DNA from: an uncultured virus (IMG/VR IMGVR_UViG_3300025138_000017)
Lineage: Duplodnaviria; Heunggongvirae; Uroviricota; Caudoviricetes
Virus record (IMG/VR): IMGVR_UViG_3300025138_000017
DNA length: 64,000 nucleotides
Direction: 5' to 3' (one strand)
Shown: positions 2,650 to 64,000 of the stretch, piece after piece
Layout: the number at the start of each line of letters is the position of its first letter
How positions within the stretch are numbered: the first letter of the stretch is position 1
The notes under the pieces: generated by a model
Told to the model about the DNA's origin: nothing
What the model saw: the letters and a program-made list of their open reading frames with translations, nothing else
Database searches by the model: none
Made by a program: the position numbers and the translations under genes

Positions 2650-3593
2650 TATACTGGTAATACTGTTTTAAATTTTAGTTTAAATATTCCACCTGCTAAT
2701 GCTACATCTTTAGCTATAACAGCTGGGTCCGTTGTTACTTTGTCCAAATTGACTTGGTATATTTGTATGCCTGCAGACTCATTATATTTTCCTTCTGAAC
2801 CAACCATATTAATATAGAATTGATCTTTACCTGGCTTGACACTCAATGTTTGTATCACAGAATATGCAAACAATCTAGAAGCAATATGTTCTCCTCCAGG
2901 TCTTGCTCCAGGACCAAAAGCACAATCAGACAATCCTCTTTCTTTAACCATTTTATCAAAATGATCAAACTGTGCTTCCATCTTTGCAAACAATTCGTAT
3001 TTCTTTGCAAATCCTTCCTTCTTAACAAGAGTTCTTAGTTCACAAAATGCTTCTGCAGCTGGTTCAAGATCACCACTTTTAAGTCTCAACACATCTTTTG
3101 CATCAACTCCTGGTTCACCTATTAATGCTTGTACACCAAGTATAGGTGCAATTAAGTTTCTAAAGTCTCTTAATGACTTCTCAAATCTACCTAAACTATC
3201 TAATGAATTCTTTGCTAATGGATATGCTTTAATCTCAAAAGCAGTAGACTTTCCAGATGTCTTGTGTTGTGTTGCAATTAAGTCAGGATTATTACTTCCT
3301 TGATTTTCTTTGATAAACTGTGCCTTAATAGTACCATCATCCTTTCTATTAGCACTATGATAATTAAATAACCAATAAAAAGCTGCCTCACCATAACCTG
3401 TAATTTGATCTGGGATACCGCCATAAGCTATTTTAAAACTTTCTAAATCAGCTCTGTCAGGTTTAAAGATACCGTGCTTTATCTCAGAAATATTATACTT
3501 TCTGCTGGTGCTTGGTATGATAAGATGATCTCCTAACGATCTTCCATCACCAAATGCTTTTTCTATTGTTTGTTCTAATTTGTTTGAAACCAT
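2649..3593 (-). CDS. Hypothetical protein, possible PD-(D/E)XK nuclease
   Basis: 314 aa; GYGE...NPDLIA...AFEIKAY arrangement; preceded by TATAAATA at 3599-3606. Confidence 0.4.
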   Translation of the reverse strand: MVSNKLEQTIEKAFGDGRSLGDHLIIPSTSRKYNISEIKHGIFKPDRADLESFKIAYGGIPDQITGYGEAAFYWLFNYHSANRKDDGTIKAQFIKENQGSNNPDLIATQHKTSGKSTAFEIKAYPLAKNSLDSLGRFEKSLRDFRNLIAPILGVQALIGEPGVDAKDVLRLKSGDLEPAAEAFCELRTLVKKEGFAKKYELFAKMEAQFDHFDKMVKERGLSDCAFGPGARPGGEHIASRLFAYSVIQTLSVKPGKDQFYINMVGSEGKYNESAGIQIYQVNLDKVTTDPAVIAKDVALAGGIFKLKFKTVLPV

Positions 3594-34699: not shown

Positions 34700-35233
34700 T
34701 TAACTACTCGTTTTAATATCGAATTTTCTATATTTAAAAGTGGCTGTGCACTCCACATAATCAACATCTGATAATGTAGTGCTAAAAGGTAAGTCCATTA
34801 GTCCTGTTGGATAAACGTCTGTGAAAAGAACATCCTTATTAGGATTCATTGCACTATTCAAGATTGTAAGTGTTGCATCACTGAACACTTTATCGTCACC
34901 CATTGAACCGCCAGCTTCACCTGTCCATCCAGTTCCATCGTCTGTAAAGTTATCTATCCTAGTTATAGAACGAATCCAATTATAAACCTCTAAATAATTT
35001 TCCATATTTTCATCAACTCTAAAAGTTAATACTAGGTCTCCAAACATTACTAAATCACCAGGCATCTGGATCTTAGCTGAGAAGGGAGTCCCTATAGGAA
35101 TTTCACCTACCGATATGGAAGGTATTGAAACCGATTGAACAAAGAAGTTCACAGTCGGTAATTTTTTAATACTAAACTTAGCACCTAGCGGTGATAAGAA
35201 GTTAGTAGATTTAGGTTCTGAATTGAATGCCAT
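34700..35233 (-). CDS. gp3: Tail tube terminator/completion protein
   Basis: NFLSP, FFVQSVSIP, FRVDENMENY, SDATLTIL. Confidence 0.88.
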   Translation of the reverse strand: MAFNSEPKSTNFLSPLGAKFSIKKLPTVNFFVQSVSIPSISVGEIPIGTPFSAKIQMPGDLVMFGDLVLTFRVDENMENYLEVYNWIRSITRIDNFTDDGTGWTGEAGGSMGDDKVFSDATLTILNSAMNPNKDVLFTDVYPTGLMDLPFSTTLSDVDYVECTATFKYRKFDIKTSS

Positions 35234-43099: not shown

Positions 43100-43651
43100 T
43101 TAATTTCCGCCTGCGTTGCCTGTAGAACCACCAGTCACTTCCCACCAATCGTATTGGAAAGTCACCTGGAATTCTTGAATGACATCTGTAGCATTCCAAT
43201 CAACTTCCATCTCAGTTATGTTAACTGGGAATATACCATTAAAAGAATACTCTCTTATTGGAACACCGGTCTTACTAAATTGTGTGACCTGTGCTGTTTG
43301 CTTGTATGCTAAGTCTGCAGCTGATCCAAAGCCTCTTACGTTGCCTAGATGAGAGTTGATTTGATTCATCCACTCTTCCATTGCATTTCTAATTAAGAAG
43401 TCTTCGTCGTTTATTACTGTTACGTTCCACTCAGCGAATGTTCTATCACCAGCAATCTTTACCTTTCTTCCGAAGTATGGTACTTCAATGAAACCTAAAG
43501 TTGAAGCTGGGACCTGAGAAGCTCTAATTAAAAATGGAGCTTTGAGGTCGCCTGCTGCGTTTGCCGGGTTAGTGATATTAACTTGGAACAGGGTAGGTCT
43601 AGCACCACCAAGTGATAACTGGGACCTTATTTCGTTAATGTTAAAAGCCAT
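43100..43651 (-). CDS. gp19: Tail tube protein
   Basis: GARPTLF, GRKVKIAGDRTF, EFQVTFQYDWW. Confidence 0.95.
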   Translation of the reverse strand: MAFNINEIRSQLSLGGARPTLFQVNITNPANAAGDLKAPFLIRASQVPASTLGFIEVPYFGRKVKIAGDRTFAEWNVTVINDEDFLIRNAMEEWMNQINSHLGNVRGFGSAADLAYKQTAQVTQFSKTGVPIREYSFNGIFPVNITEMEVDWNATDVIQEFQVTFQYDWWEVTGGSTGNAGGN

Positions 43652-51133: not shown

Positions 51134-51397
51134 TTAGTCGTACGTGCCCCCGTCGATATCCATTCCTGTATTAGCTAAAGTAAATGTATCGTTGGCTGAA
51201 TCGTAAACTAACATACCATTATCTACTTCTGGGTCAGTATCAACATCTAATAAATCTTTAAGATTAGCAGATGATAATGAACTACTTGTAGTTACGGTAA
51301 AAACGTTTGTTGTATTTAATTGATTGTGTTCTATACCACCACTTGGTATTTCAACTTTCAAGTTTAATGCTGCATCATTGAATAAGGTATTACTCAT
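51134..51397 (-). CDS. Small virion-associated protein
   Basis: LKDLLDVD...LVYDS...IDGGTY motifs typical of phage fibre modules. Confidence 0.6.
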   Translation of the reverse strand: MSNTLFNDAALNLKVEIPSGGIEHNQLNTTNVFTVTTSSSLSSANLKDLLDVDTDPEVDNGMLVYDSANDTFTLANTGMDIDGGTYD

Positions 51398-51729
51398 TAC
51401 TTGGTTACCTCTGGGGTCACAGTTACCATCCCCTCTAATATTCTGGATTTAATTCCACCACTGTTAGTTAGCTCAGCATCGTAAACAAATCTACCTGCAT
51501 TCATAGCAGCTGTTGTAGCATTGTTTAATGCTAATGTCAATGTTGAGTTGGCAGTGGATAGTGTAGCTGTAAAAGCTGTGGAATTAGATGAAGAAAAAGT
51601 TTTTCTTATTTGAGCAGCTGCAGAGTATCCAGACAGGTTTACGTTTGTACCCGCTGCATCTTTTAAATTAACTGTCGTAGAAAAGTCTGTGCCTTGATCT
51701 ATTATTATATTAACCTTAGTGGCCATCAA
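51397..51729 (-). CDS. Ig-like/BppU-like virion protein
   Basis: NIIIDQGTDF...GRFVYDAEL...RILEG. Confidence 0.65.
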   Translation of the reverse strand: MMATKVNIIIDQGTDFSTTVNLKDAAGTNVNLSGYSAAAQIRKTFSSSNSTAFTATLSTANSTLTLALNNATTAAMNAGRFVYDAELTNSGGIKSRILEGMVTVTPEVTK

Positions 51730-52864: not shown

Positions 52865-53657
52865 TGATTATAAAAGCCTCCCGCTTATGTACTTGCTTGG
52901 AATCTATAGTGTAGTGCAAAAATGCTTTTTTAGATCCAGGCCTCAATTCAGTTTCACGATACCCTGTAACAAAATTATATTTTGCATCATTAGGCATCCT
53001 TTTTATATTTATCTGCATATCTGGATTTTCATATAATGCTCTCCAGAATGCAAATGTATCCCAATACGTTAGCCCTTTAGGAAACGGTTTGGTGTTCTTT
53101 TCAACTGTATGTCTTTTATACCAATACAGCCATTGCTCCCATAGTTTTTGTGTTCGCTCATTCTTACGCCAGACAAACATTCCACAATGCCATCTAAACT
53201 TATGAGCCTTTCCTTGTTTGTATAACTCAACATGATCAGGATTATAGTGTTCTAACTCTTCTCCAGGTATACCGGGTCCTACTTGATCGTCGTGTGTAAA
53301 GTAAACGACTTTAGCATTGTAAGGTCTATTCTCTGACATGACAACATCTGCATCACCTAATAAATCAAAAACTTCTTCTATTTCATTGCTTAGTACAAAT
53401 CCATCTACATCCAAATAACATGTAACGTCAAATGGTGTCAATGGTAATGCCCATAACTTTGTTCTACAATGTACTGGTACTGGTGTTATAAGATGATCAA
53501 ACAAATGTCTATCTTCATCTCTTACCCACTCTTCATGAGTAAACACTGCTACCTTTGCATCAGGTACCTCATCTTTCAATGATTGAACGCACATAACCAT
53601 TGCTTCATAGAATGGTTTTGATAATGTAGCTACTAAAAGATAACCTCTAGTTTCCAT
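52815..53657 (-). CDS. GT-A (GT8-like) glycosyltransferase
   Basis: RTKLWAL...TCYLDVD (DxD), HCGMF, WDTFAF, KYNF, FLHY. Confidence 0.78.
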   Translation of the reverse strand: METRGYLLVATLSKPFYEAMVMCVQSLKDEVPDAKVAVFTHEEWVRDEDRHLFDHLITPVPVHCRTKLWALPLTPFDVTCYLDVDGFVLSNEIEEVFDLLGDADVVMSENRPYNAKVVYFTHDDQVGPGIPGEELEHYNPDHVELYKQGKAHKFRWHCGMFVWRKNERTQKLWEQWLYWYKRHTVEKNTKPFPKGLTYWDTFAFWRALYENPDMQINIKRMPNDAKYNFVTGYRETELRPGSKKAFLHYTIDSKQVHKREAFIINETTFDTTYGSFDRLK

Positions 53658-54180
53658 CCTTTTCAGCTTCCTTAATTAAAATAGCAGATCCAAATGCTCT
53701 TGCCTCTTCGGCCGTTAATGCTGATCTAAGTTTTCTTTTTAAATTTTTATGTTCTGTATTTTTAACAGTAGGTATATCAAGAAACATAGATTTAACATTC
53801 CATAAGTCTGCTCGAGACTTTTCTCTTTCTTCTGCCTTCTTCATTTCTTCTGATGATTTTGACAAAGCTGACTGTATTGCTGCTTGTCTTTTAGTATTAT
53901 GTCTAACTTCATCTTCACTAAATTGTCTTTTTATATCTCTATACAATGGATGGTTTTGATCTTTAGGAATTCCTTTTTCTTGAGTAGCCATTCCATCTGG
54001 TCTTAATAACACACATGATAATTCTGTCCGAGCATTATTTGTATAATGTGGATTTACAATTACCGGTAATGTAGGATCCAGATGTAACTCTGGAATTGGA
54101 AGAGTTCTTAGTTCTTCTTTCTTGGGGGTTTCGACTGTGACTCCTTCTGGAATCTTAGCCATTTTAGGTTCTTCTGCCAT
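53647..54180 (-). CDS. Hypothetical protein
   Basis: 177 aa with GAGG SD; first gene after the dual promoter at 54203-54231. Confidence 0.7.
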   Translation of the reverse strand: MAEEPKMAKIPEGVTVETPKKEELRTLPIPELHLDPTLPVIVNPHYTNNARTELSCVLLRPDGMATQEKGIPKDQNHPLYRDIKRQFSEDEVRHNTKRQAAIQSALSKSSEEMKKAEEREKSRADLWNVKSMFLDIPTVKNTEHKNLKRKLRSALTAEEARAFGSAILIKEAEKDGN

Positions 54181-54234: not shown

Positions 54235-57200
54235 TTAAGCTGTTCTAACCCATAGTTTTAATGTTGTTATTGTTTCTGTACCAGCCTGTACTGTTTGTCC
54301 AGCATATGCATGAGTATAGGTTCCTTCGTATTGGGCTACAAAGTTAGTTGTAAATGAACCCTCATATGCTTTTTCATATTGTTTAGTGTATTGGCCAATG
54401 TATGCTTTTTCGTATTGTGTTGTAAATGATCCCTCAAATAATTGCGTATAGGTCTTAACATAGTTACCTGTAAACTGCTGATCAAATTGACCAGAGTATG
54501 ATTTTTCATACAAGCCAACATATGCTTTTTCAAATTGTTGAGTAAACTGACCTGTAAATGTTCCTTCGTAATCTTTAGAATATATTTTTAACCAAGTACC
54601 AACATATGATCTTTGGAATTCGCCTTCATATTGTTTAGTATATTGACCAAGATATTCGCCAGAGTATTGGCCAAGGAATGATCCAACCCAAGCCTTTTCA
54701 AACTGTCCTACATATATGCCTTCATATTGTTTGTTAAATGATCCTTCAAACTGTTTACTAAATTGTTTTGCATATTGTTTAGTATATTGTCCTGTGTACT
54801 GTCCTAAGTATGACTTGACGTATGAACCAGTAAACTCACCTTCATATGTTTTAGTATATTGTCCAACATATGATGCACCAAATTGGCCTTCAAAAGTTCC
54901 TGTATACTGTCCAATATATGTACCTTGATATATTCCCTGGTATGCATGTGCACCTTCATATATTCCTGTCCAGTATCCTATGTATACTCCTTCATATGTT
55001 TTTTCATACTGTCTTGTAAACTGGCCAGTGTATTGGCCATCATATTGTCCACTAAATGTTCTGTCACCTGTCCATTGCTTGGCATATGCTTTCTGATAGT
55101 TTGCACTTACATATGTTGTGTTGAAGACTCCTTCCCACTGATGAGCATATTGCCCCTCGTATGATCTGTCTCCTTCAAATTGACCTGCATATTGTTTTAC
55201 ATATTCAACTACAAATACCTTTTGATAATTAGCTGAGTATTGTCCTGTATATGTTCTTGATCCAGAGTATGCTTTGGTATAGGTTTTATTAAATACTCCA
55301 GTGTATTGAGTGCCATACTGACCTGTATATGTTCTGTCGCCTTCATATTGTTTAGCAAATTGGCCTTCCCAGTTTCTAGCAAACGAACCTTCATATGTTT
55401 GACCATATTCTTTTTGATAGTTCTTAGTATAAGCTCTAGCGTATTGGCCTACAAACTGCGTATTGAATACTCCAACATATATTCCTTCGTATAATGTTAA
55501 GTATGTTTTGCCATATTGTCCAACAAATGATTTTAAGTAATCAGTTGTAAATGATCCTTGATATGATTTAGTATAGTTAGTATCAAATGAACCTTCATAT
55601 AATGCTAAGTATTGTTTATTGAATTGGCCTTCGTATGCTTTAACGAACAATCCAGTATATGTTTTAACATATGATGTTTCAAATACACCTTCATATGCTT
55701 TTTCATAATTAGTTGCAAACTGCCCTTCATAAGTTTTTTCGTAATTAGTTCCAAACTGGCCTGTGTATGTTGTGTCATAGTTTGTAGCAAATTGACCTTC
55801 ATACAGTTTAGCATATTGTACTCCAAACGCACCCTCATATTGAGTAGTATATTGGCCTTCATATGCTTTAGCATATGTAGTATTGAAGTCTCCTTCGTAT
55901 TGAGCTACATAATCTTTAGCATAGTTTGTACTAAATATTCCTTCATACAATTTAGCATATTGTGTAGAAAACTGTCCTTCATATGCTTTAGCATATTGTT
56001 GTGTATAGTTAGTTGTGTATGTTCCTTCAAACACACCACCGTATATGTTTGTATATTGACCAATGTATGCTTTTGCATATTGCTCACTAAATTGTCCTAA
56101 GAATGCTTTAGAGTATGATCCAGTATATGCTTTTGCATATTGCTCAATATAATCTTTAGAGTAGTTGTCTGTAAATGCACCAGTAAACTGACTAGCATAT
56201 TGTCCAAGATATGCTTGAGCATAGTTGACTGATTCCCCACCTGTAAACTCTCTTGCATAAGAACCTGTATATGTTTTCTGGTATTGGTTAACATAGTTCT
56301 TAGCATAGTTATCTGTAAACTGTCCTTCGTATACATCTGTATATTGGCCTACATAATTCTTAGTATAATTGGTAGTATATGTTCCTTCAAACACTCCACC
56401 GTATATGTTAGTGTATTGACCAACATAGTTCTTAGCATATTGTGTTTGATATATTCCTACAAATGCTTTGGTGTAAGTTCCTGTATAATCTTTTTGGTAA
56501 TTAGTAGAATATATTTTTGTATAGTTATCTGTATACTGGCCAGTGTACTGTCTGTCATAGTTTCCAGCATAAGTTTTAACATATTCAGTTACATAATCTT
56601 TAGCATAGTTATCAGCAAATTGTCCTGTAAACTGTCTATCATAATTACCCTCATATTGCTTAGCATATTGAGCAATATAATCTTTAGCATAGTTGTCTGT
56701 AAATTGACCTTCATATGCTTTATCAAAATTCTTTATATATGATTTAGCATACTGTGTGGTATAGGTTCCTTCGAAGACACCACCATATATGTTCGTATAT
56801 TGACCAACATAATTCTTAGCATAATTTTCTGTAAACGCACCTTCGTATTGAGAAACAAATACACCCTCATATGTTTTAGTGTATTGTGTTGTGTATGCTC
56901 TTTCATATGAAGCTGCAAACAATCCTACATACTGACCTTCAAATTGTCCTTCATAGTTAGTAGCATATTGTCTTTCCCAGTTTTTAGTATAGTTGGTCGT
57001 AAACAATCCTGTGTATTGGTCTGTAAATTGACCTACGAATGCTTTTGTATAGTTTCCAGTATATGCTCTATCATAGTTGCCCGTATAGTCTCTAGTATAA
57101 TTGGTTGTATATTGAGCATCAAATGATCCAGTAAATTGACTTGCATATTGTCCAACATAATTTTTGGTATAGTTAGTTGCATATGATCCAGCAAACACGC

Positions 57201-60200
57201 CACCGTATATGTTTGTATATTGACCAACATAGTTCTTAGTATAGTTTGTTACATAATCTCTAGAATAATTGGTTGTGTATACTCCAACATATGCTTTTGT
57301 CCACTGACCTGAATATGCTTTTTGGAAGTTCTTATTATAGTTACCAGTAAACTGTCCGGCAAACCCTCTTGAGTATTGACCGATCCATTGTTGAGCATAG
57401 TTGGTTACAAACGTACCCGCAAACACGCCTTCATATATATTTGTATATTGACCTACATATGCTTTCTGATAAGCAGTAGAGTAAGTTCCGTCAAACGAAC
57501 CACCATATATGTTTGTGTATTGGCCTACGTATGCTCTTTGATATGCTGTGTTATATGTTCCTGAAAATGCACCTTCATAGATATTCGTATATTGACCAAC
57601 ATAGTTTTTAGTATAATTGGTTGCATACTGGCCAGTAAAGGTTTTAGTATATTGACCAGTGTATTGTTTTAAATAGTTAGTAGCATATTGACCAGTATAT
57701 GTTTTAGTATATTGTCCTGTATATGTCTTAGTATAATTTACATCATAGTTTTTAGTATAATTGGTTGCATACTGACCAGCAAACGCTTTTGTATATTGAC
57801 CTGTGTACTGTTTTAAATAGTTTCTAGTATATGTTCCACTAAACTGTGTATTGTAAGTTCCAGAATATGCTCTATCATAGTTTCCAGCATAAGTCTTAGT
57901 GTAATTACCAGTATATGATTTTGTGTATTGACCAGTATATTGTCTTAAAAAGTTGGTAGCATACTGACCAGAATATCCTTTAGTATAATTACCAGTATAA
58001 GAACCTGTATACTGTCCAGTGTATGCTCCAGTATATTGACCTGCATATGCTCTTTGATAGCTAGTGTCATATTGTTTTAAATAGTTTTTATTATATGAAC
58101 CACTAAACTGCTTAGTATATTGACCAGTATATTGTTTTAAATAATTGGTTCCATACTGGCCAGCAAATTGTCTATTATATGTACCACTAAACTGTTTGTT
58201 ATAGTTACCTGCATATGCTCTAGTGTAGTTAGTTGCATATGTTCCACTATATTGTGTAGCGTATGTTCCTGTGTACTGTCCAGAATAAGCTGTTGAGAAA
58301 TATCCTGTATATTGTTTAGTATAGTTGCCTGTAAATTGTCCTGTGTACTGTCCAGTAAATCCTCTAGTATATTGTCCTGTATACTGTCTTAAATAGTTAG
58401 TACTATAGGACCCTGTATATGTTGTACTAAAGTATCCTGTATACTGACCTGAATATGTTGCAGTAGTTTGAGAGAAACAACCTTCGTATTCTTCAAAGTC
58501 ATCATCACCAGTATCAATAAAGATTCTACAATATGTACCACCACTACTGAATTGTTGAGATACTGACCCTACAAATGTTCTAGTATAGTTAGTTGTTTTT
58601 ACATAGTTTAAAAATTGGCTCCCAAATTTACTAGAGACAACCCTGTTGTAAGTTACATTACCAGCAAACTGTCTAGTATAATTTACATTTGCAGTACCAG
58701 TAAATTGTTGAACTGCCCCAACATAGTTTCCTGTATATTGAGTAGATCTGGTTACTCTTACATAGTTTCCTGAATAAGCTCTTGTATAGTTGGTTCCATA
58801 TGATCCACTATATTGTGAATTATATGTTCCGGAAAATTGACTACTATATGTTCCAGCAAATTGTTTTGAGTAGTTTGTAGTTCTAGTTACCCTAGAATAA
58901 CTTCCTGTCCATTGTCTTGAGAAGTTTCCTGTATACTGTCCTGTGTATTGTCTTGTATAGTTAGTGCTGTAATATCCAGTATATGTCTTAGTATAGTTTC
59001 CTGAATATGCTTTTGTATAGTTACCTGTATACTGTCTTAAAAAGTTAGTACCATATGTTCCACTATACTGTGCTGAGTATTGACCTGTGTACGATCTAGT
59101 AAAGTTAGTTCCATATTGTCTTGTATAGTTGGTAGCATAGTATCCTGTATACTGTCCAGAATAGGTTCCACTATACTGTCCTGAATATGCACCAGAGTAT
59201 GCTCTGTCATAATTTCCTGTATAATGTTTAGTATAGTTAGTTCCATATGTTCCAGCAAATTGACTGGTGTACGTGCCACTATATGCTCTATCATAGTTTC
59301 CAGTATATCTTTTAGTATAGTTACCTGTATATGATTTAGTATATTGACCTGTGTATGCTTTTTGGAAGTTAGTACCATACGTTCCACTATATTGAGAACT
59401 ATAGTTACCTGTGTACTGTCTTTGATACTGAGCCGTATAAGTTTTTAAATAGTTTTTATTATAGTCACCAGAGTATGCTCTGTTATAGTTTCCCGTATAA
59501 TGTTTAGTATAGTTAGTTCCATATGTTCCAGAATATTGTTTATTGTAGTTACCTGTATACTGTCTAGTATAGTTAGTAGCAAATGACCCTTCCCATATTC
59601 TATCATACTGTCCTATATAAGAACCAACATATGCTTTAGTATAGTTTCTAGCAAATGATCCTTCCCATATTCTATCGTATTGTCCTACATAAGATCCAAC
59701 ATATGCTTTAGTATAGTTTCTAGTAAATGATCCTTCCCATATTCTATCGTATTGTCCTATGTACTGACCAACATATGCTTTCTGATATTGAGCTGCGTAT
59801 GGTCCTAAGAATGTTCCTGTGTATACTCCAGTCCATTGCGTCTGGAATAATTTAGTATAGTTGGTATTATATACGCCAGTGTAGGTGGTGTTATAGGAAC
59901 CTTCATATGCTTTCTGATATTGTTTAACATAATTCTTAGCATAGTTTGTAGCAAATGAACCTTCCCAGATTCTATCATATTGTCCTACATATTGGCCAAC
60001 ATAGTTTTTAGTGTAATTCTTTGCAAACGTTCCTTCGAATGCTCCTGTGTATTGTCCTAGCCAAACTTTAGCATATTGCTTTGCATATGCTTTTTGATAT
60101 ACGCCTGTATATGTTTTGGTGTATACGCCTGTAAATATTGTAGAGTATACTCCTTCCCATATCTTGGTGTACTGGCCTTCATACTGTGCAGCCCATTGTA

Positions 60201-63200
60201 CAAGATATGCTTTTTGATATTGTTTTGTATATACTCCAGTCCATTGTTTTGCATATGAACCTTCCCACTGTTGTGCGTATGCTGCAACATATTGTTTAGC
60301 ATATTGTTTTGAATACTGACCGACATAAGCCTTTTCATATTGTCCAAGGTAAACTTTATCATATTGGGTAACAAATGTTCCTTCCCATATTCTATCATAT
60401 TGGCCTACGTATTGGCCAACATATGCTTTCTCGTATTGTTTTGAATAAGCCTTTTCATATGTTTTTACATATTGTCCGGTCCACTGTTGTTGATATTGAG
60501 CAACATAGTTTTTAGCATAGTTGGTTGTATACTGTCCTGTGAATCTTCCTTCGTATTGTCCAGCCCATTGTTGTAGGTATTGGGCAACATAGTTTTTAGC
60601 ATATGCAGTTTGGAATTCACCTGCATATCTTTTTTCGTATATTCCTGTCCACTGTTGCTGGTATTGTGCTGCATAGTCTTTTTGATACTGACGAAGATAA
60701 ACACCAACATAGTCTGTCTCATAAGATCCTTCATAATCTTTGGTGTATTGAGTAACAAACGTACCTTCCCATATTCTATCGTATTGTCCTATGTACTGAC
60801 CAACATATGCTTTTTCGTATTGTTTAGCAAATGTTCCTTCCCATTGCTTAGTGTACTGACCTGCCCATTGTTGTTCGTATTGGGTTACATAATCTTTAGC
60901 ATAGTTAGTATTATAGTCGCCATCAAATGCTCTTTCGTATGCACCAGCATATGCCTTTTGATATTGTGTTACAAACTGGCCTTCAAATGCTCCTGTGTAT
61001 TGTCCTACCCATTGTTGCTGATATTGCTTAACATAATTCTTAGCATAGTTGGTTTCATAGTCGCCAAGATATGCTTTAGAGTATGAGCCTTCGTATTGTT
61101 TATCGTATTGAGTAACAAACGTACCTTCCCATATTCTATCGTATTGTCCTACCCATTGACCAACATAAGCCTTTTCATATTGCTTACTATATTGTTTTAC
61201 ATATTGACCAATGTAATCTTTTGTATATTGAGCTACGTATTGACCAACATATTCTTTTGTATATTGTGCAACATAGTTCTTAGCATATTGTCCTGTGTAT
61301 GCTTTTATATAATTTGTAGTATACTGACCACCATATTGACCAGCATAGAGACCTACATATGCTTGGCCCCAGTTTTGTTCATATAATCCTGTGTATTGAT
61401 TAATCCACGTCTTACCGTATACGCCTGTATACTGTTGAAGATAATTACGTGCGTAGATTCCTGCATACTGTTTTAAGTATTGTGTTGCGTATTGGCCAAC
61501 GTATTGTTTAGCATAACCTTTGTTCCAATTACTTAAATAATTCTTTTCATAGGATCCAACATATGCTTTCTCCCATATTCTATCATATTGGCCAACATAT
61601 GTCTTTGTGTATTGAGCTTCGTATATTCCAACATAATCTTTTGTGTATGTTTTTATATACTGGCCTATGAAATCCTTTTCGTAGTTCTTAATATAAGAAC
61701 CTACATAAGCTCCTTCAAATGTTTTTTGATATGCTCCAACATAATCTTTATTATATGATGTAACATAATCTTTTATATAACCAGCAGTATAGTTACCAAC
61801 ATAATTAGCTTCTAAGAAATATCCTGAGAATAATTCTGAAGCACTATCATATTGTCCAGTGAATGTTCTATCACCTTCGTATTGTTTTGTATACTGACCT
61901 GTATATGCTTTTAAGTATCCTTGAGTATAGAAACCATTATATTCTCTATCACCCTCGTATGCTTTTGTAAATTGCTTTTGATAGTTTGTACCAAGATACC
62001 CTTTACTAAAGTTTTGAGTAAATTGGCCAGTGTATGTTCTTGTTCCAGTATATTGTTTTGTGTATTGACCTGTGTATGATGCTGTCCAATTACCAATATA
62101 TATTTTTTGGTATTGATCTGCATACTGTCCTGTATATGTTCTACTACCAGCGTATGTGCCTTCGTATGAGCCCGTATACTGCTTTGCATATTGCTCAACA
62201 TACTGTCCCGTATAGTTAGCTGCGAAAATGCCTTCAAACTGTTTTACGCCGGTGTAATACCCTGTGTATTGTCCATCGAACGAGCCTTCAAATTGTTTAG
62301 AGTATGCTCCAGTCCATTGTTGGCCAAATGATCCTTCATATTGTTTACTATACTGTCCTGTGTAAATTCCTGTATAAGTTGTATTAAAAGATCCTTCAAA
62401 TACACCTTCGTATATTTTACTGAATGTTCCTTCAAATTGGCCTTCGTATTGCCCCAGGTATGCACCCATGTACTGTCCAGCAAACGCTCCGGAATATTGG
62501 GAAATAAAGAATCCATCAAACGAGCCTTCATATTGCTTAGTAAATGAGCCTTCGTATTGTTTGCTGTACAGACCAGTATAAGACTTAAGATATATTTTAT
62601 CATATTGGCCAACATACTGTTTAACATATACGCCTGTATATGTTCCTTCAAAAGAACCTTCGTATTGGGTTAAGAATGTTCCTTCGTATTGTTTTGTGTA
62701 GTTTCCAGAAAATGAACCTTCATACAATCCGGTATATGTTTTATTAAAGTTTCCTTCATATTGTCCAATATATTCTTTTGTATATTGGGAAACAAAGACA
62801 CCCTCATATTGTTTTTCGTAATGGTGTGTGTATATACCGACATATTGCTTTGCATATTGAGATGCATATTGGCCAACATAGTTTGTATTGTATCCTATAT
62901 CAGCTAAAGTGTTTCTATTATCAACAAATGATCCACCTACTTGTACCCAGGTCTCACCTGAAGCTGCAGGGTTAGTCGCTGATAATTTATATTGTCCTAT
63001 ACCAGTAGCATATATTTGATTTCTCAATCTCATTGCTAATAGTTTTATCTCTGCATCGGACATCTCTTTAATTGCAGAGTTTTGAATTTTTGCTGTTCTA
63101 ACAACAGAAGGTGCAGAAACACCTTGGGTCTTACGCCATAAGGTATATGTAGTCGTACCACCTAAAGTGGTATCGGTCATTGTGGATCCAGTACTTGTAT

Positions 63201-63639
63201 AAAGGCTATTGTTGGGATTTGTTTCAGACAAGTGGTAGGATCCCAAACCGGACGATGTAAGATTCGCAAGTGCTCTTGATATAAGGACAGAGTTTAGAGT
63301 ATTACTATGCTCAGATGCATAGCCGCTGTCATTAAGAAACAATGGGTACACCATAGATGTTTCTGCGATCGAATTGAGATTTTGTTTAAGTGTATATGTT
63401 TGGGACGTTATATTATTAGCAGCTGGATGAGTACCTACGCTTTCTGTTCTATAGGTATCAGTGAAAGAACCCATTGAGGTTCCCTGTCCATTTATGTTTA
63501 AAGTACCAAGGCCAGAAGTGCTTGTTGAGAATTCAGATAGAATTTGATGGACGGCGTAATCCATCTCGGTAGTCTGCATTTCCTGCACACCGAGAAAAGT
63601 ACCCCCTCCGGTCGTTTTTATTCTAAGTGGATTTCCCAA
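54235..63639 (-). CDS. Giant (3134 aa) aromatic tetrad-repeat protein with mirror-symmetric arms; putative beta-hairpin fibre
   Basis: Uninterrupted 9.4 kb ORF with TTG start. Residues ~250-3112 carry Y/F/W at every 4th position. Central C1704-C1721 acidic loop. Confidence 0.85.
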   Translation of the reverse strand: MGNPLRIKTTGGGTFLGVQEMQTTEMDYAVHQILSEFSTSTSGLGTLNINGQGTSMGSFTDTYRTESVGTHPAANNITSQTYTLKQNLNSIAETSMVYPLFLNDSGYASEHSNTLNSVLISRALANLTSSGLGSYHLSETNPNNSLYTSTGSTMTDTTLGGTTTYTLWRKTQGVSAPSVVRTAKIQNSAIKEMSDAEIKLLAMRLRNQIYATGIGQYKLSATNPAASGETWVQVGGSFVDNRNTLADIGYNTNYVGQYASQYAKQYVGIYTHHYEKQYEGVFVSQYTKEYIGQYEGNFNKTYTGLYEGSFSGNYTKQYEGTFLTQYEGSFEGTYTGVYVKQYVGQYDKIYLKSYTGLYSKQYEGSFTKQYEGSFDGFFISQYSGAFAGQYMGAYLGQYEGQFEGTFSKIYEGVFEGSFNTTYTGIYTGQYSKQYEGSFGQQWTGAYSKQFEGSFDGQYTGYYTGVKQFEGIFAANYTGQYVEQYAKQYTGSYEGTYAGSRTYTGQYADQYQKIYIGNWTASYTGQYTKQYTGTRTYTGQFTQNFSKGYLGTNYQKQFTKAYEGDREYNGFYTQGYLKAYTGQYTKQYEGDRTFTGQYDSASELFSGYFLEANYVGNYTAGYIKDYVTSYNKDYVGAYQKTFEGAYVGSYIKNYEKDFIGQYIKTYTKDYVGIYEAQYTKTYVGQYDRIWEKAYVGSYEKNYLSNWNKGYAKQYVGQYATQYLKQYAGIYARNYLQQYTGVYGKTWINQYTGLYEQNWGQAYVGLYAGQYGGQYTTNYIKAYTGQYAKNYVAQYTKEYVGQYVAQYTKDYIGQYVKQYSKQYEKAYVGQWVGQYDRIWEGTFVTQYDKQYEGSYSKAYLGDYETNYAKNYVKQYQQQWVGQYTGAFEGQFVTQYQKAYAGAYERAFDGDYNTNYAKDYVTQYEQQWAGQYTKQWEGTFAKQYEKAYVGQYIGQYDRIWEGTFVTQYTKDYEGSYETDYVGVYLRQYQKDYAAQYQQQWTGIYEKRYAGEFQTAYAKNYVAQYLQQWAGQYEGRFTGQYTTNYAKNYVAQYQQQWTGQYVKTYEKAYSKQYEKAYVGQYVGQYDRIWEGTFVTQYDKVYLGQYEKAYVGQYSKQYAKQYVAAYAQQWEGSYAKQWTGVYTKQYQKAYLVQWAAQYEGQYTKIWEGVYSTIFTGVYTKTYTGVYQKAYAKQYAKVWLGQYTGAFEGTFAKNYTKNYVGQYVGQYDRIWEGSFATNYAKNYVKQYQKAYEGSYNTTYTGVYNTNYTKLFQTQWTGVYTGTFLGPYAAQYQKAYVGQYIGQYDRIWEGSFTRNYTKAYVGSYVGQYDRIWEGSFARNYTKAYVGSYIGQYDRIWEGSFATNYTRQYTGNYNKQYSGTYGTNYTKHYTGNYNRAYSGDYNKNYLKTYTAQYQRQYTGNYSSQYSGTYGTNFQKAYTGQYTKSYTGNYTKRYTGNYDRAYSGTYTSQFAGTYGTNYTKHYTGNYDRAYSGAYSGQYSGTYSGQYTGYYATNYTRQYGTNFTRSYTGQYSAQYSGTYGTNFLRQYTGNYTKAYSGNYTKTYTGYYSTNYTRQYTGQYTGNFSRQWTGSYSRVTRTTNYSKQFAGTYSSQFSGTYNSQYSGSYGTNYTRAYSGNYVRVTRSTQYTGNYVGAVQQFTGTANVNYTRQFAGNVTYNRVVSSKFGSQFLNYVKTTNYTRTFVGSVSQQFSSGGTYCRIFIDTGDDDFEEYEGCFSQTTATYSGQYTGYFSTTYTGSYSTNYLRQYTGQYTRGFTGQYTGQFTGNYTKQYTGYFSTAYSGQYTGTYATQYSGTYATNYTRAYAGNYNKQFSGTYNRQFAGQYGTNYLKQYTGQYTKQFSGSYNKNYLKQYDTSYQRAYAGQYTGAYTGQYTGSYTGNYTKGYSGQYATNFLRQYTGQYTKSYTGNYTKTYAGNYDRAYSGTYNTQFSGTYTRNYLKQYTGQYTKAFAGQYATNYTKNYDVNYTKTYTGQYTKTYTGQYATNYLKQYTGQYTKTFTGQYATNYTKNYVGQYTNIYEGAFSGTYNTAYQRAYVGQYTNIYGGSFDGTYSTAYQKAYVGQYTNIYEGVFAGTFVTNYAQQWIGQYSRGFAGQFTGNYNKNFQKAYSGQWTKAYVGVYTTNYSRDYVTNYTKNYVGQYTNIYGGVFAGSYATNYTKNYVGQYASQFTGSFDAQYTTNYTRDYTGNYDRAYTGNYTKAFVGQFTDQYTGLFTTNYTKNWERQYATNYEGQFEGQYVGLFAASYERAYTTQYTKTYEGVFVSQYEGAFTENYAKNYVGQYTNIYGGVFEGTYTTQYAKSYIKNFDKAYEGQFTDNYAKDYIAQYAKQYEGNYDRQFTGQFADNYAKDYVTEYVKTYAGNYDRQYTGQYTDNYTKIYSTNYQKDYTGTYTKAFVGIYQTQYAKNYVGQYTNIYGGVFEGTYTTNYTKNYVGQYTDVYEGQFTDNYAKNYVNQYQKTYTGSYAREFTGGESVNYAQAYLGQYASQFTGAFTDNYSKDYIEQYAKAYTGSYSKAFLGQFSEQYAKAYIGQYTNIYGGVFEGTYTTNYTQQYAKAYEGQFSTQYAKLYEGIFSTNYAKDYVAQYEGDFNTTYAKAYEGQYTTQYEGAFGVQYAKLYEGQFATNYDTTYTGQFGTNYEKTYEGQFATNYEKAYEGVFETSYVKTYTGLFVKAYEGQFNKQYLALYEGSFDTNYTKSYQGSFTTDYLKSFVGQYGKTYLTLYEGIYVGVFNTQFVGQYARAYTKNYQKEYGQTYEGSFARNWEGQFAKQYEGDRTYTGQYGTQYTGVFNKTYTKAYSGSRTYTGQYSANYQKVFVVEYVKQYAGQFEGDRSYEGQYAHQWEGVFNTTYVSANYQKAYAKQWTGDRTFSGQYDGQYTGQFTRQYEKTYEGVYIGYWTGIYEGAHAYQGIYQGTYIGQYTGTFEGQFGASYVGQYTKTYEGEFTGSYVKSYLGQYTGQYTKQYAKQFSKQFEGSFNKQYEGIYVGQFEKAWVGSFLGQYSGEYLGQYTKQYEGEFQRSYVGTWLKIYSKDYEGTFTGQFTQQFEKAYVGLYEKSYSGQFDQQFTGNYVKTYTQLFEGSFTTQYEKAYIGQYTKQYEKAYEGSFTTNFVAQYEGTYTHAYAGQTVQAGTETITTLKLWVRTA
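54304..62892 (-). repeat. Degenerate 12-nt periodic coding repeat with higher-order units
   Basis: Codes [Y/F/W]xxx tetrads (YTGQ, YEGS, YTKN and similar); near-identical DNA blocks recur, e.g. at 60751-60790 and 61111-61150. Confidence 0.9.
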
Positions 63640-63643
63640 TTTA

Positions 63644-64000
63644 CTAAGCCTTTAATTTAAACGCGCTATCCCCAAATACGCTACCAGTATTTATAAAACT
63701 TACTCGACTAGCATCATAACCTATTATAGCTGATCCTGGCTCGCCTCCGTTTCCTGACTGTGCGTATTGAGAATAGTGGGTTCCTGGGTTAGCAACATTC
63801 TGTGATGCATCTGAGTCATCATTATACCCGCCTGCACCTGTTCCTAGTTGACCTAGTAATCCACCATTTCCTCCATGTATGCCTAATGCTGTGGATGCAT
63901 TAGTGCCATTTCTATCTGAACTGCTTTCTGAAATGAAAGCTCCTGAATTCCATCCAGCACCAGTTCCACCGATGCCTCCAGAGCTACTTACTCCGTTTAC
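63644..64000 (-). CDS. C-terminal part of a glycine-rich protein, resembling a T-even gp38-type adhesin (5' end outside the window)
   Basis: Translated by hand: SSGGIGGTGAGW...GGNGGLLGQLGTGAGG...GNGGEPGSAIIGYDASRVSFINTGSVFGDSAFKLKA*. Confidence 0.6.
   Translation of the reverse strand, partial: VNGVSSSGGIGGTGAGWNSGAFISESSSDRNGTNASTALGIHGGNGGLLGQLGTGAGGYNDDSDASQNVANPGTHYSQYAQSGNGGEPGSAIIGYDASRVSFINTGSVFGDSAFKLKA
63688..63695 (-). promoter_or_regulatory. Late promoter TATAAATA for the giant gene
   Basis: Exact consensus about 50 nt upstream of the TTG start, inside the upstream gene's 3' end. Confidence 0.6.

Follow-up and report, generated by a model that had tools for sequence, protein, structure and literature searches.

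A 3134-residue tyrosine-repeat protein of an uncultured marine phage: a probable out-and-back appendage with a three-unit base

We analyzed a 64,000-nucleotide stretch of DNA from an uncultured virus (IMG/VR record IMGVR_UViG_3300025138_000017; hereafter the window), in which one open reading frame (ORF) on the minus strand encodes a giant protein dominated by a period-4 aromatic repeat. Taken as a whole, the observations are best explained, with good probability, by an out-and-back appendage that has a three-unit base, an expanded hairpin in unit 3 and a C-terminal closing strand. The gene product would be an appendage on the virion of this uncultured phage, which is marine and T4-like (Kyanoviridae-type). 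The compact base of the protein, ~265 residues, would comprise three homologous units, each leading from a short hairpin through a helix to a long hairpin, and may be beta-prism-like. Tandem duplications, each adding a multiple of 4 residues, would have lengthened the long hairpin of unit 3 step by step into two arms of ~1330-1390 residues each, running to an irregular, fast-diverging tip of ~200 residues and back in a fixed antiparallel register. The last 21 residues would then slot in as the final strand of unit 3, so that the base is complete only once the whole chain has been made.

The ORF (54235-63639) starts with TTG and encodes 3134 amino acids followed by a stop codon; relatives share the start MGNPL(K/R)IK with the giant protein. 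The gene and the parts of its product are as follows.

54235..63639, minus strand: whole gene; a 99% identical copy lies on contig L003, and intact relatives of 2838, 2645 and 2436 amino acids lie on L004, L005 and L007, respectively.
63352..63639, minus strand: base unit 1 (residues 1-96), with the MGNPLRIK hairpin, a helix and the GSFTDTY...QTYTLKQ hairpin; from the family alignment, hhalign and AlphaFold2 (AF2) models of relatives.
63103..63351, minus strand: base unit 2 (residues 97-179), with a helix, GLGSYHLSETNP and the closed hairpin GSTMTDT-TLGG-TTTYTLWRK; from the family alignment and hhalign.
62905..63102, minus strand: N-terminal part of base unit 3 (residues 180-245), with RTAK, a helix, GIGQYKLSATNP and the outgoing strand GGSFVDNRNT; from hhalign and the covarying columns 224 and 237.
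58897..62904, minus strand: outgoing (N) arm (residues 246-1581), with the period-4 repeat [YFW]-x-[G/K]-x, 6-spacing breaks of the GDRTYTG type and seven DRIWEG motifs.
58300..58896, minus strand: irregular middle or tip (residues 1582-1780), with a broken aromatic lattice and Cys1704-RIFIDTGDDDFEEYEG-Cys1721; no Pfam family.
54301..58299, minus strand: returning (C) arm (residues 1781-3113), with the period-4 repeat and with breaks and T[ND][IV]Y[EG]G motifs that mirror the N arm.
54238..54300, minus strand: C-terminal strand GQTVQAGTETITTLKLWVRTA (residues 3114-3134), completing base unit 3; from the family motif, hhalign, AF2 models of relatives and covariation.

That this ORF is simply an open frame over repetitive DNA is hardly conceivable. 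Such a view could appeal to its repetitive sequence and to the lack of any matching library family, but the frame stays open over 9.4 kb in DNA of 33-41% G+C, its ends are conserved, relatives of other lengths are intact on four further contigs and in a GenBank phage, and its homologues number in the hundreds.

The base consists of residues 1-245 and 3114-3134, which form three homologous units (~1-96; 97-179; 180-245 plus 3114-3134). A family alignment of 50 members was cut into the three units, and the resulting profiles were compared by hhalign. Unit 2 matched unit 3 with a probability of 99.5% (E 1e-22, 64 columns), while unit 1 matched unit 2 (98.1%, E 6.5e-14), with the match reaching the final strand, and unit 3 (98.0%, E 2.2e-13). 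The family consensus of a unit reads RP[LV]K..L.EM.D.E(helix)..G.G.Y.LQ..AP.GGTW...TI.D..(turn)..T..LWR.T. In global mode (99.6%, E 2e-23), the C-terminal 't..LW.Rta' (LWVRTA) was aligned to the 't..LWrkT' strand of unit 2, and the entire repeat appeared as one insertion between the 'D...G' turn of unit 2 and this strand. The insert spans from about residue 245 to residue 3113, that is, ~2870 amino acids.

Two natural relatives were modelled by AF2 as single chains with family alignments: P0018 (296 amino acids) and P0007 (513 amino acids), the latter being the closest complete relative, with a base 47% identical. The P0018 model had a mean predicted local distance difference test score (pLDDT) of 92.7 and a predicted template modelling score (pTM) of 0.88, and was uncertain only in the turn 258-271; its hairpins lay at 54-63/79-87, 151-163/166-178 (with a 2-residue turn) and 244-257/272-294. 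In P0007, the pLDDT was 89-98 for residues 1-258 and 76-98 for residues 479-513, with long strands at 234-258 and 479-511. The C-terminal segment was a long, confident beta strand of the base in both models, and L3129, R3132 and T3116 of the giant protein occupy invariant or nearly invariant columns of the family. Covariation was examined as mutual information with average-product correction among 110 complete members, on a model of 281 columns. The two strongest column pairs of all, 224-275 and 237-265, join the strand preceding the insert to the C-terminal strand, and the pairs 220-276, 213-277 and 235-269 were also within the top 40. The sums of the covarying pairs (490-504) are consistent with an antiparallel ladder.

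These results bear on the original prediction, which had been made from the letters of the window and a list of its ORFs. It named three related N-terminal modules, and all three are present, as the hairpin halves of longer units that add a short N-terminal hairpin and a helix. It further held that a ~2860-residue repeat replaces the turn equivalent to the TLGG of unit 2, in agreement with the insert located at the unit-3 turn by global hhalign, and that the third module is finished only by the C-terminus, as now supported by profile homology, by the AF2 strands of the two relatives and by covariation. Unit homology, the models of relatives and covariation likewise favor its proposal that the N- and C-termini fold together.

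The base defines a large family. A phmmer search with residues 1-255 returned 317 cluster representatives at E<=1e-3, 201 at <=1e-10 and 47 at <=1e-30, the best at 4e-96. The C-terminal motif G.T[IV]....T..LW.R[TIV][AS] ends 129 of the 202 matches listed; the other matches listed are proteins cut at contig ends. One of the 129, of 184 amino acids, is a truncated protein matched by chance, and the rest range from 273 to 1578 amino acids (median ~408). Some relatives have almost no insert: P0150 (273 amino acids) has essentially the turn only, followed by P0057 (278), P0063 (287) and P0018. From these the length series is unbroken to 1578 amino acids, after which come the giants of 2436-3347 amino acids. 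A homologue search restricted to near length (1723-5485 amino acids) gave none; the giants came from IMG/VR loci, where one truncated copy was found besides the four close relatives of 3134, 2838, 2645 and 2436 amino acids.

The family is uncharacterised and, from the matches obtained, apparently purely viral. PHROGs yielded no family for 49 of the 50 short relatives, Pfam none for P0018 or P0007 and, at E<=1, none for the giant protein, and the family profile matched no PDB sequence at E<=1. Foldseek of the base model gave nothing at E<=1e-3 in the PDB or BFVD, and look-ups in the Atlas and in clusters returned only viral 'hypothetical protein' clusters. The one library match of the giant protein, to a 'head morphogenesis' PHROG (E 6e-5, 0 stretches), is weak and probably compositional. 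Full-text literature searches outside subscription journals gave nothing on the family or on a period-4 tyrosine hairpin fibre.

When all listed proteins were aligned to the hidden Markov model of the base, almost every complete member proved to have an insert of at least 12 amino acids at the unit-3 turn. Fourteen relatives had one at the matching turn of unit 1 (17-232 amino acids) and five at that of unit 2 (31-43 amino acids; P0199, P0200, P0202, P0204 and P0142). Thirteen unit-1 inserts were inspected. Six had some period-4 aromatic spacing: P0107 (13/18 spacings equal to 4), P0137, P0084, P0101, P0072 and, weakest, P0095 (2/8). The other seven were globular-looking, and globular-looking turn inserts of 31-232 amino acids occur in the family instead of or besides the Tyr repeat, those in unit 1 belonging to P0148, P0096, P0089, P0036, P0144, P0130 and P0120 and those in unit 2 to the five proteins named above; P0148 and P0096 had no match in Pfam. 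Since inserts are found at the turns of units 1, 2 and 3, the hairpin turns of the base are general expansion sites, and the base seems to be a general display platform.

We then turn to the insert itself. Every fourth residue between 250 and 3112 is aromatic: the spacing is 4 in 663 of 726 consecutive aromatic pairs, and the longest uninterrupted run comprises 222 aromatics (residues 613-1497). Position 0 of the repeat unit is Y (75%), F (20%) or W (5%); position 1 is chiefly T/E/A/V; position 2 is G (42%), K (27%), T (11%) or R (7%); and position 3 is Q (36%) or N (16%), next A/T/S. The aromatic position is the sole hydrophobic one of the 4-residue unit. A period-4 repeat of this kind was absent from all other ORFs of the window.

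At the DNA level, the gene contains tandem arrays with periods of 12, 24, 36, 60, 72, 84 and 144 nucleotides (64-90% matches), all multiples of 12 nucleotides except for one overlapping 38-nucleotide row. These periods fit growth by duplication of whole 4-residue units. Autocorrelation of the protein showed further peaks at lags of ~24-28, 48, 72-76 and 100 residues, which arise from the DNA tandem repeats, the 24-28 peak being accounted for by 72- and 84-nucleotide duplications. Since lags of this size are within the lengths of beta-solenoid coils, they could also suggest that the arms fold separately, for example as beta-solenoids like those of ice-nucleation proteins, into rods lying side by side, which would make the object about ten times shorter. 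The beta-solenoid of ice-nucleation proteins has 16-residue coils, and no autocorrelation peak was found at lag 16. No position of the repeat unit is hydrophobic enough for a solenoid core.

The two arms were then compared for register. Breaks in the aromatic lattice, seen as 6-residue spacings at G[DST]R[TSE][YF].G, are equally far from the base on both arms. The segment lengths, in residues, are as follows.

Window: base to first break, 212 (N arm) and 212 (C arm); distal regular segment, 968 (N) and 984 (C).
L004: base to first break, 212 (N) and 213 (C); distal regular segment, 840 (N) and 856 (C).
L005: base to first break, 444 (N) and 444 (C); distal regular segment, 584 (N) and 580 (C).
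L007: base to first break, 444 (N) and 444 (C); distal regular segment, 380 (N) and 372 (C).

The break motifs of the GDRTYTG type, four on the N arm and four on the C arm, have position sums of 3355-3356. All seven DRIWEG motifs of the N arm (834, 954, 1082, 1222, 1298, 1322 and 1346) are paired with T[ND][IV]Y[EG]G motifs of the C arm (2530, 2410, 2282, 2142, 2066, 2042 and 2018, respectively) at a sum of 3364, which uses seven of the eight C-arm motifs and leaves the one at 2434 unpaired. In L004, four of four N-arm motifs pair with four of four C-arm motifs at a sum of 3067, with spacings unlike those of the window. When motifs were placed at random, none of 20000 trials reached either pairing count. 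The N-arm DRIWEG motif is absent from L005 and L007, and the motif-pairing test covers the window and L004. Two other origins of the mirrored motifs were considered and rejected: direct duplication, as the order of gaps is reversed and not repeated, and an inverted DNA repeat, which would give no mirrored protein.

Three tandem copies of 72 nucleotides (59565-59781, 90% matches) encode the three consecutive DRIWEG units at residues 1298, 1322 and 1346, whose mirror partners at 2066, 2042 and 2018 sit in another 72-nucleotide array (57432-57603, 73% matches). Because the matching copies on the two arms lie in separate arrays, they were gained by separate duplications. Differences in length among relatives fall equally on both arms, which is the protein counterpart of compensatory change, and the two arms probably pair as beta strands. 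Homologues with the same base and inserts of differing length, which the original prediction had proposed to look for, exist from 273 to 3347 amino acids. Its suggestion of evolution by loop expansion holds up as well, given inserts at equivalent turns, DNA tandem repeats in multiples of 12 nucleotides and arms that change length together.

Packed rods would likewise need irregularities at matched heights, but the arm segments are equal to the residue (212/212 and 444/444), which is tighter than rod packing requires, and in the AF2 model of P0007 the strands of the base hairpin stay paired as they enter the first repeats (479-511). We consider separately folded arms improbable. Still less probable is a disordered or gel-like, Tyr-rich low-complexity repeat in which the likeness of the C-terminus to unit 2 is incidental. 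The low pLDDT of the stalk in AF2 (<50) would suit disorder, as would the strongly biased composition of the protein (Y 538, T 399, G 366 and Q 310 of 3134 residues). A 4-residue lattice unbroken over 222 units would not be expected of a disordered region, nor would mirrored motifs and matched insertions and deletions on both arms, and the C-terminal motif recurs in the 129 matches noted above and covaries with the strand preceding the insert.

Several observations weigh against the out-and-back architecture. The estimates of absolute register conflict with one another: mutual information and G:G pairs peak at a sum of 3366 (sums 3346-3391), apposition of Ile in the paired motifs needs 3368, and the DR motifs give ~3359. 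A generic scan for mirror identity was weak: z did not exceed 3.8, and only 2 of 11 segments peaked at the sum expected. Symmetry is lost close to the tip, where the N side, taken from residue 613 to the Cys pair, is the longer by ~67 residues. In the 3347-residue relative of phage C48C1, globular-looking stretches break the returning arm only, and the arms are ~970 and ~1090 residues long. The P0007 stalk (260-477) had the pLDDT of <50 mentioned above and a single 4-residue strand (405-408), so that the paired ribbon is without model support. The C-terminal strand would lie beside the pre-insert strand according to DSSP strand assignments, pLDDT, homology and covariation rather than a contact map, and the tail-fibre gene context is the one line of evidence that points to presence in the virion.

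The tip region (residues 1582-1780) is 44% identical to that of L004, as against 80% for the base, and such fast divergence would be expected of the part that contacts the host. Cys1704 and Cys1721 (58477-58530, minus strand) are the only cysteines of the protein and flank the acidic stretch RIFIDTGDDDFEEYEG at its centre; the pair may form a disulfide-closed or metal-binding apex. The middle region of the L007 protein also has a Cys pair (1352 and 1365), and those of L004 and L005 have none.

In the proposed out-and-back appendage, one face of each arm would carry aromatic residues alternating with Gly/Lys and the other face polar residues, as in a solvent-exposed beta ribbon and not a buried core. 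The mirrored GDRTYTG breaks and the DRIWEG/TNIYGG pairs are most likely register marks against slippage of a degenerate period-4 repeat. Closure of the base by the last strand might serve as a check of full length and of correct zipping. The rise of an extended strand is ~3.3-3.4 angstrom per residue, and 1330 residues at this textbook rise would give a fibre of up to ~0.45 micrometre, an upper bound. The fibre would serve in host contact, with binding by the tip and perhaps by a neighbouring GP38-like adhesin.

The number of chains is a separate question, and we infer a monomer. A homotrimer with the same chain path, in which a six-stranded antiparallel needle as in gp37 would have small polar positions inward and tyrosines outward, is possible but doubtful. 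In its favor, AF2 of a monomer failed on the stalk, fibre-assembly-like genes lie nearby, and a lone two-stranded ribbon of 0.4 micrometre would seem fragile. Yet one chain is enough for AF2 to fold the base with confidence (pTM 0.88), the three homologous units of the base make a built-in pseudo-trimer, no sequence relation to gp37 or fibre families was found, and a metal-binding His ladder like that of gp37 is absent, as the protein has only 11 His in 3134 residues. The fullest form of the monomer reading, which we put forward tentatively and at somewhat under even chances, is a free-standing two-stranded ribbon (~1330 rungs, up to ~0.45 micrometre) with a Tyr ladder, a mirrored 'knob' register and a last strand that locks into a pseudo-trimeric base. 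Such an object would have no structural precedent, and marine phages would tune its length by paired duplications on the two arms, widening the capture radius for scarce hosts.

All genes of the window, which comes from the genome of a T4-like marine myovirus, lie on the minus strand, and its closest nucleotide matches are ~72% identical stretches of Prochlorococcus and Synechococcus myoviruses. It carries structural genes (neck, head-completion, sheath stabiliser, small and large terminase, sheath, tube, portal, prohead protease, scaffold and major head protein) and replication genes (DNA polymerase, clamp, loader, UvsX/Y/W-type, helicase and late sigma factor). The neighbours of the giant gene are as follows.

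63644..64000, minus strand: upstream neighbour, a tail-fibre protein whose glycine-rich end is GP38-adhesin-like; the window edge truncates it to its last 118 amino acids, which share 87% identity with the end of a 952-residue L004 protein.
53647..54180, minus strand: downstream neighbour, 177 amino acids, Lys/Glu-rich; 26% identity (E 3e-7) to C48C1 CDS0202, with the position conserved in L004 also.
51397..51729, minus strand: LtfC or L-shaped-tail-fibre-assembly-like gene, 110 amino acids; phrog_3304 at E 7e-22 and Pfam LtfC at E 1.5e-4, the latter below the cut-off.

The 952-residue L004 homologue of the upstream neighbour (P0208, L004 7136-9994) matched Pfam GP38 (E 7.8e-11) and a PHROG of tail fibre/host specificity. 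Two blocks of this homologue (~33-272 and 347-606) also follow the period-4 aromatic repeat, with an irregular stretch rich in Pro and Gly between them; the protein may form another out-and-back hairpin of smaller size, or dock on the giant fibre as a partner. In L004 three fibre-type genes precede the giant gene, encoding a large structural protein, a 1046-residue fibre with an endosialidase-chaperone domain and this 952-residue GP38-adhesin-like fibre. The 177-residue downstream ORF, with no match in PHROGs or Pfam, is a candidate assembly factor. It is the first of three small family-less ORFs downstream of the giant gene, which are followed by the LtfC-like gene, which is also found downstream of the giant gene in C48C1. 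Because of this cluster of tail-fibre genes, the giant protein is read as a virion fibre of the tail-fibre module.

Elsewhere in the window, the tail-tube family phrog_45 was matched by 34700-35233 (minus strand, E 3.4e-40) and by 43100-43651 (minus strand, E 3.5e-54), so that a second tube-like gene lies away from the sheath-tube pair. The auxiliary genes in 1-30000 (minus strand) encode a carbamoyltransferase, two 2OG-Fe(II) oxygenases, QueD-like and QueE-like proteins, a peptide deformylase and Hsp20, and there are also a heptose kinase/adenylyltransferase-like gene and cytidyltransferase-like genes, a set typical of marine T4-like phages.

The cells that a phage is able to find and infect are determined by its fibres. 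The phage fibres known to us are trimers made from a handful of repeat types. In the family described here, a hairpin of the base domain would have been extended stepwise from ~7 to ~2870 residues with its arms kept equal to the residue; our analysis describes how the base is built, locates the insertion exactly and identifies alternative sites for it. The series from 273 to 3347 amino acids could serve as a natural one for the study of folding and register in long beta-hairpins, and the family may offer a new scaffold for protein design. The 'length covariation' of the arms can be used like base-pair covariation in RNA, to derive a protein fold from sequence alone. How phages of the dilute ocean might extend their reach also becomes a testable idea.

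Among known systems, the only match in the phage record collection was the hypothetical protein CDS0201 of phage C48C1 (WJE88074.1, OQ984149.1, Kyanoviridae; 3347 amino acids). It resembles the protein of the window in its base (30% identity over 252 amino acids), its period-4 aromatic repeat and its end (...ETYTLYVRVA), and its gene in having the conserved small downstream gene and the LtfC-like gene as neighbours. Its repeat differs in being richer in Arg/Ser/Thr, with an aromatic spacing of 4 or 8, and non-repeat stretches occur only in the second half. CDS0201 (L002 1012-11055, P0002) also contains an exact duplication of ~75 amino acids (KTRHRSYLYY...), either real or an assembly artefact.

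Among out-and-back fibres, the closest precedent is gp37, a trimer whose needle is short and holds metal ions bound by His. As described in PMC9659904, three chains of the T4 gp37 long-tail-fibre tip form a six-stranded antiparallel needle (Bartual et al. 2010). In this needle each chain extends as far as a receptor-binding head and then returns, so that both of its ends lie in one proximal domain, a likeness to the architecture proposed here. In the giant protein, a path of this type is supported by the mirrored motifs, the matched arm lengths and the C-terminal strand of the base. The differences are a period-4 Tyr stalk that is 10-100 times longer and a three-unit base made by a single chain, and no sequence relation to gp37 or fibre families was found by Pfam (giant protein, P0018 and P0007), by PHROGs (short relatives) or by the family profile against the PDB.

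For the base, exhaustive structural alignment (VIA-align) of the P0018 model gave Mp2Ba1 (8b6v, Z 6.6), the C-terminal domain of a Photorhabdus MACPF protein (2qp2, Z 6.5), the MABP of MVB12B (3tow, Z 5.9) and perforin-2 P2 (6sb1, Z 5.3), over 112-122 residues at a root-mean-square deviation (rmsd) of 3.5-5.1; in the best row, 122 residues were aligned at an rmsd of 3.8. All Z values are below 8, a level cautioned as perhaps reflecting a common arrangement only, and this weak likeness to beta-prisms joins the points against the proposed architecture. Beta-prism domains share with the base a three-fold internal repeat, found here by hhalign, but they have no sequence similarity to it, and each unit here adds a helix. 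The P2 domain of perforin-2 has an extended hairpin.

For the stalk, tryptophan zippers and the central sheet of OspA, which are flat designed or natural folds stabilised by aromatic pairs across strands or by a single-layer sheet, are two-stranded or single-layer beta structures of 12-60 residues, with no hydrophobic core, one aromatic face and one polar face. The predicted stalk would have the same coreless, aromatic-faced build, extended to ~1330 rungs.

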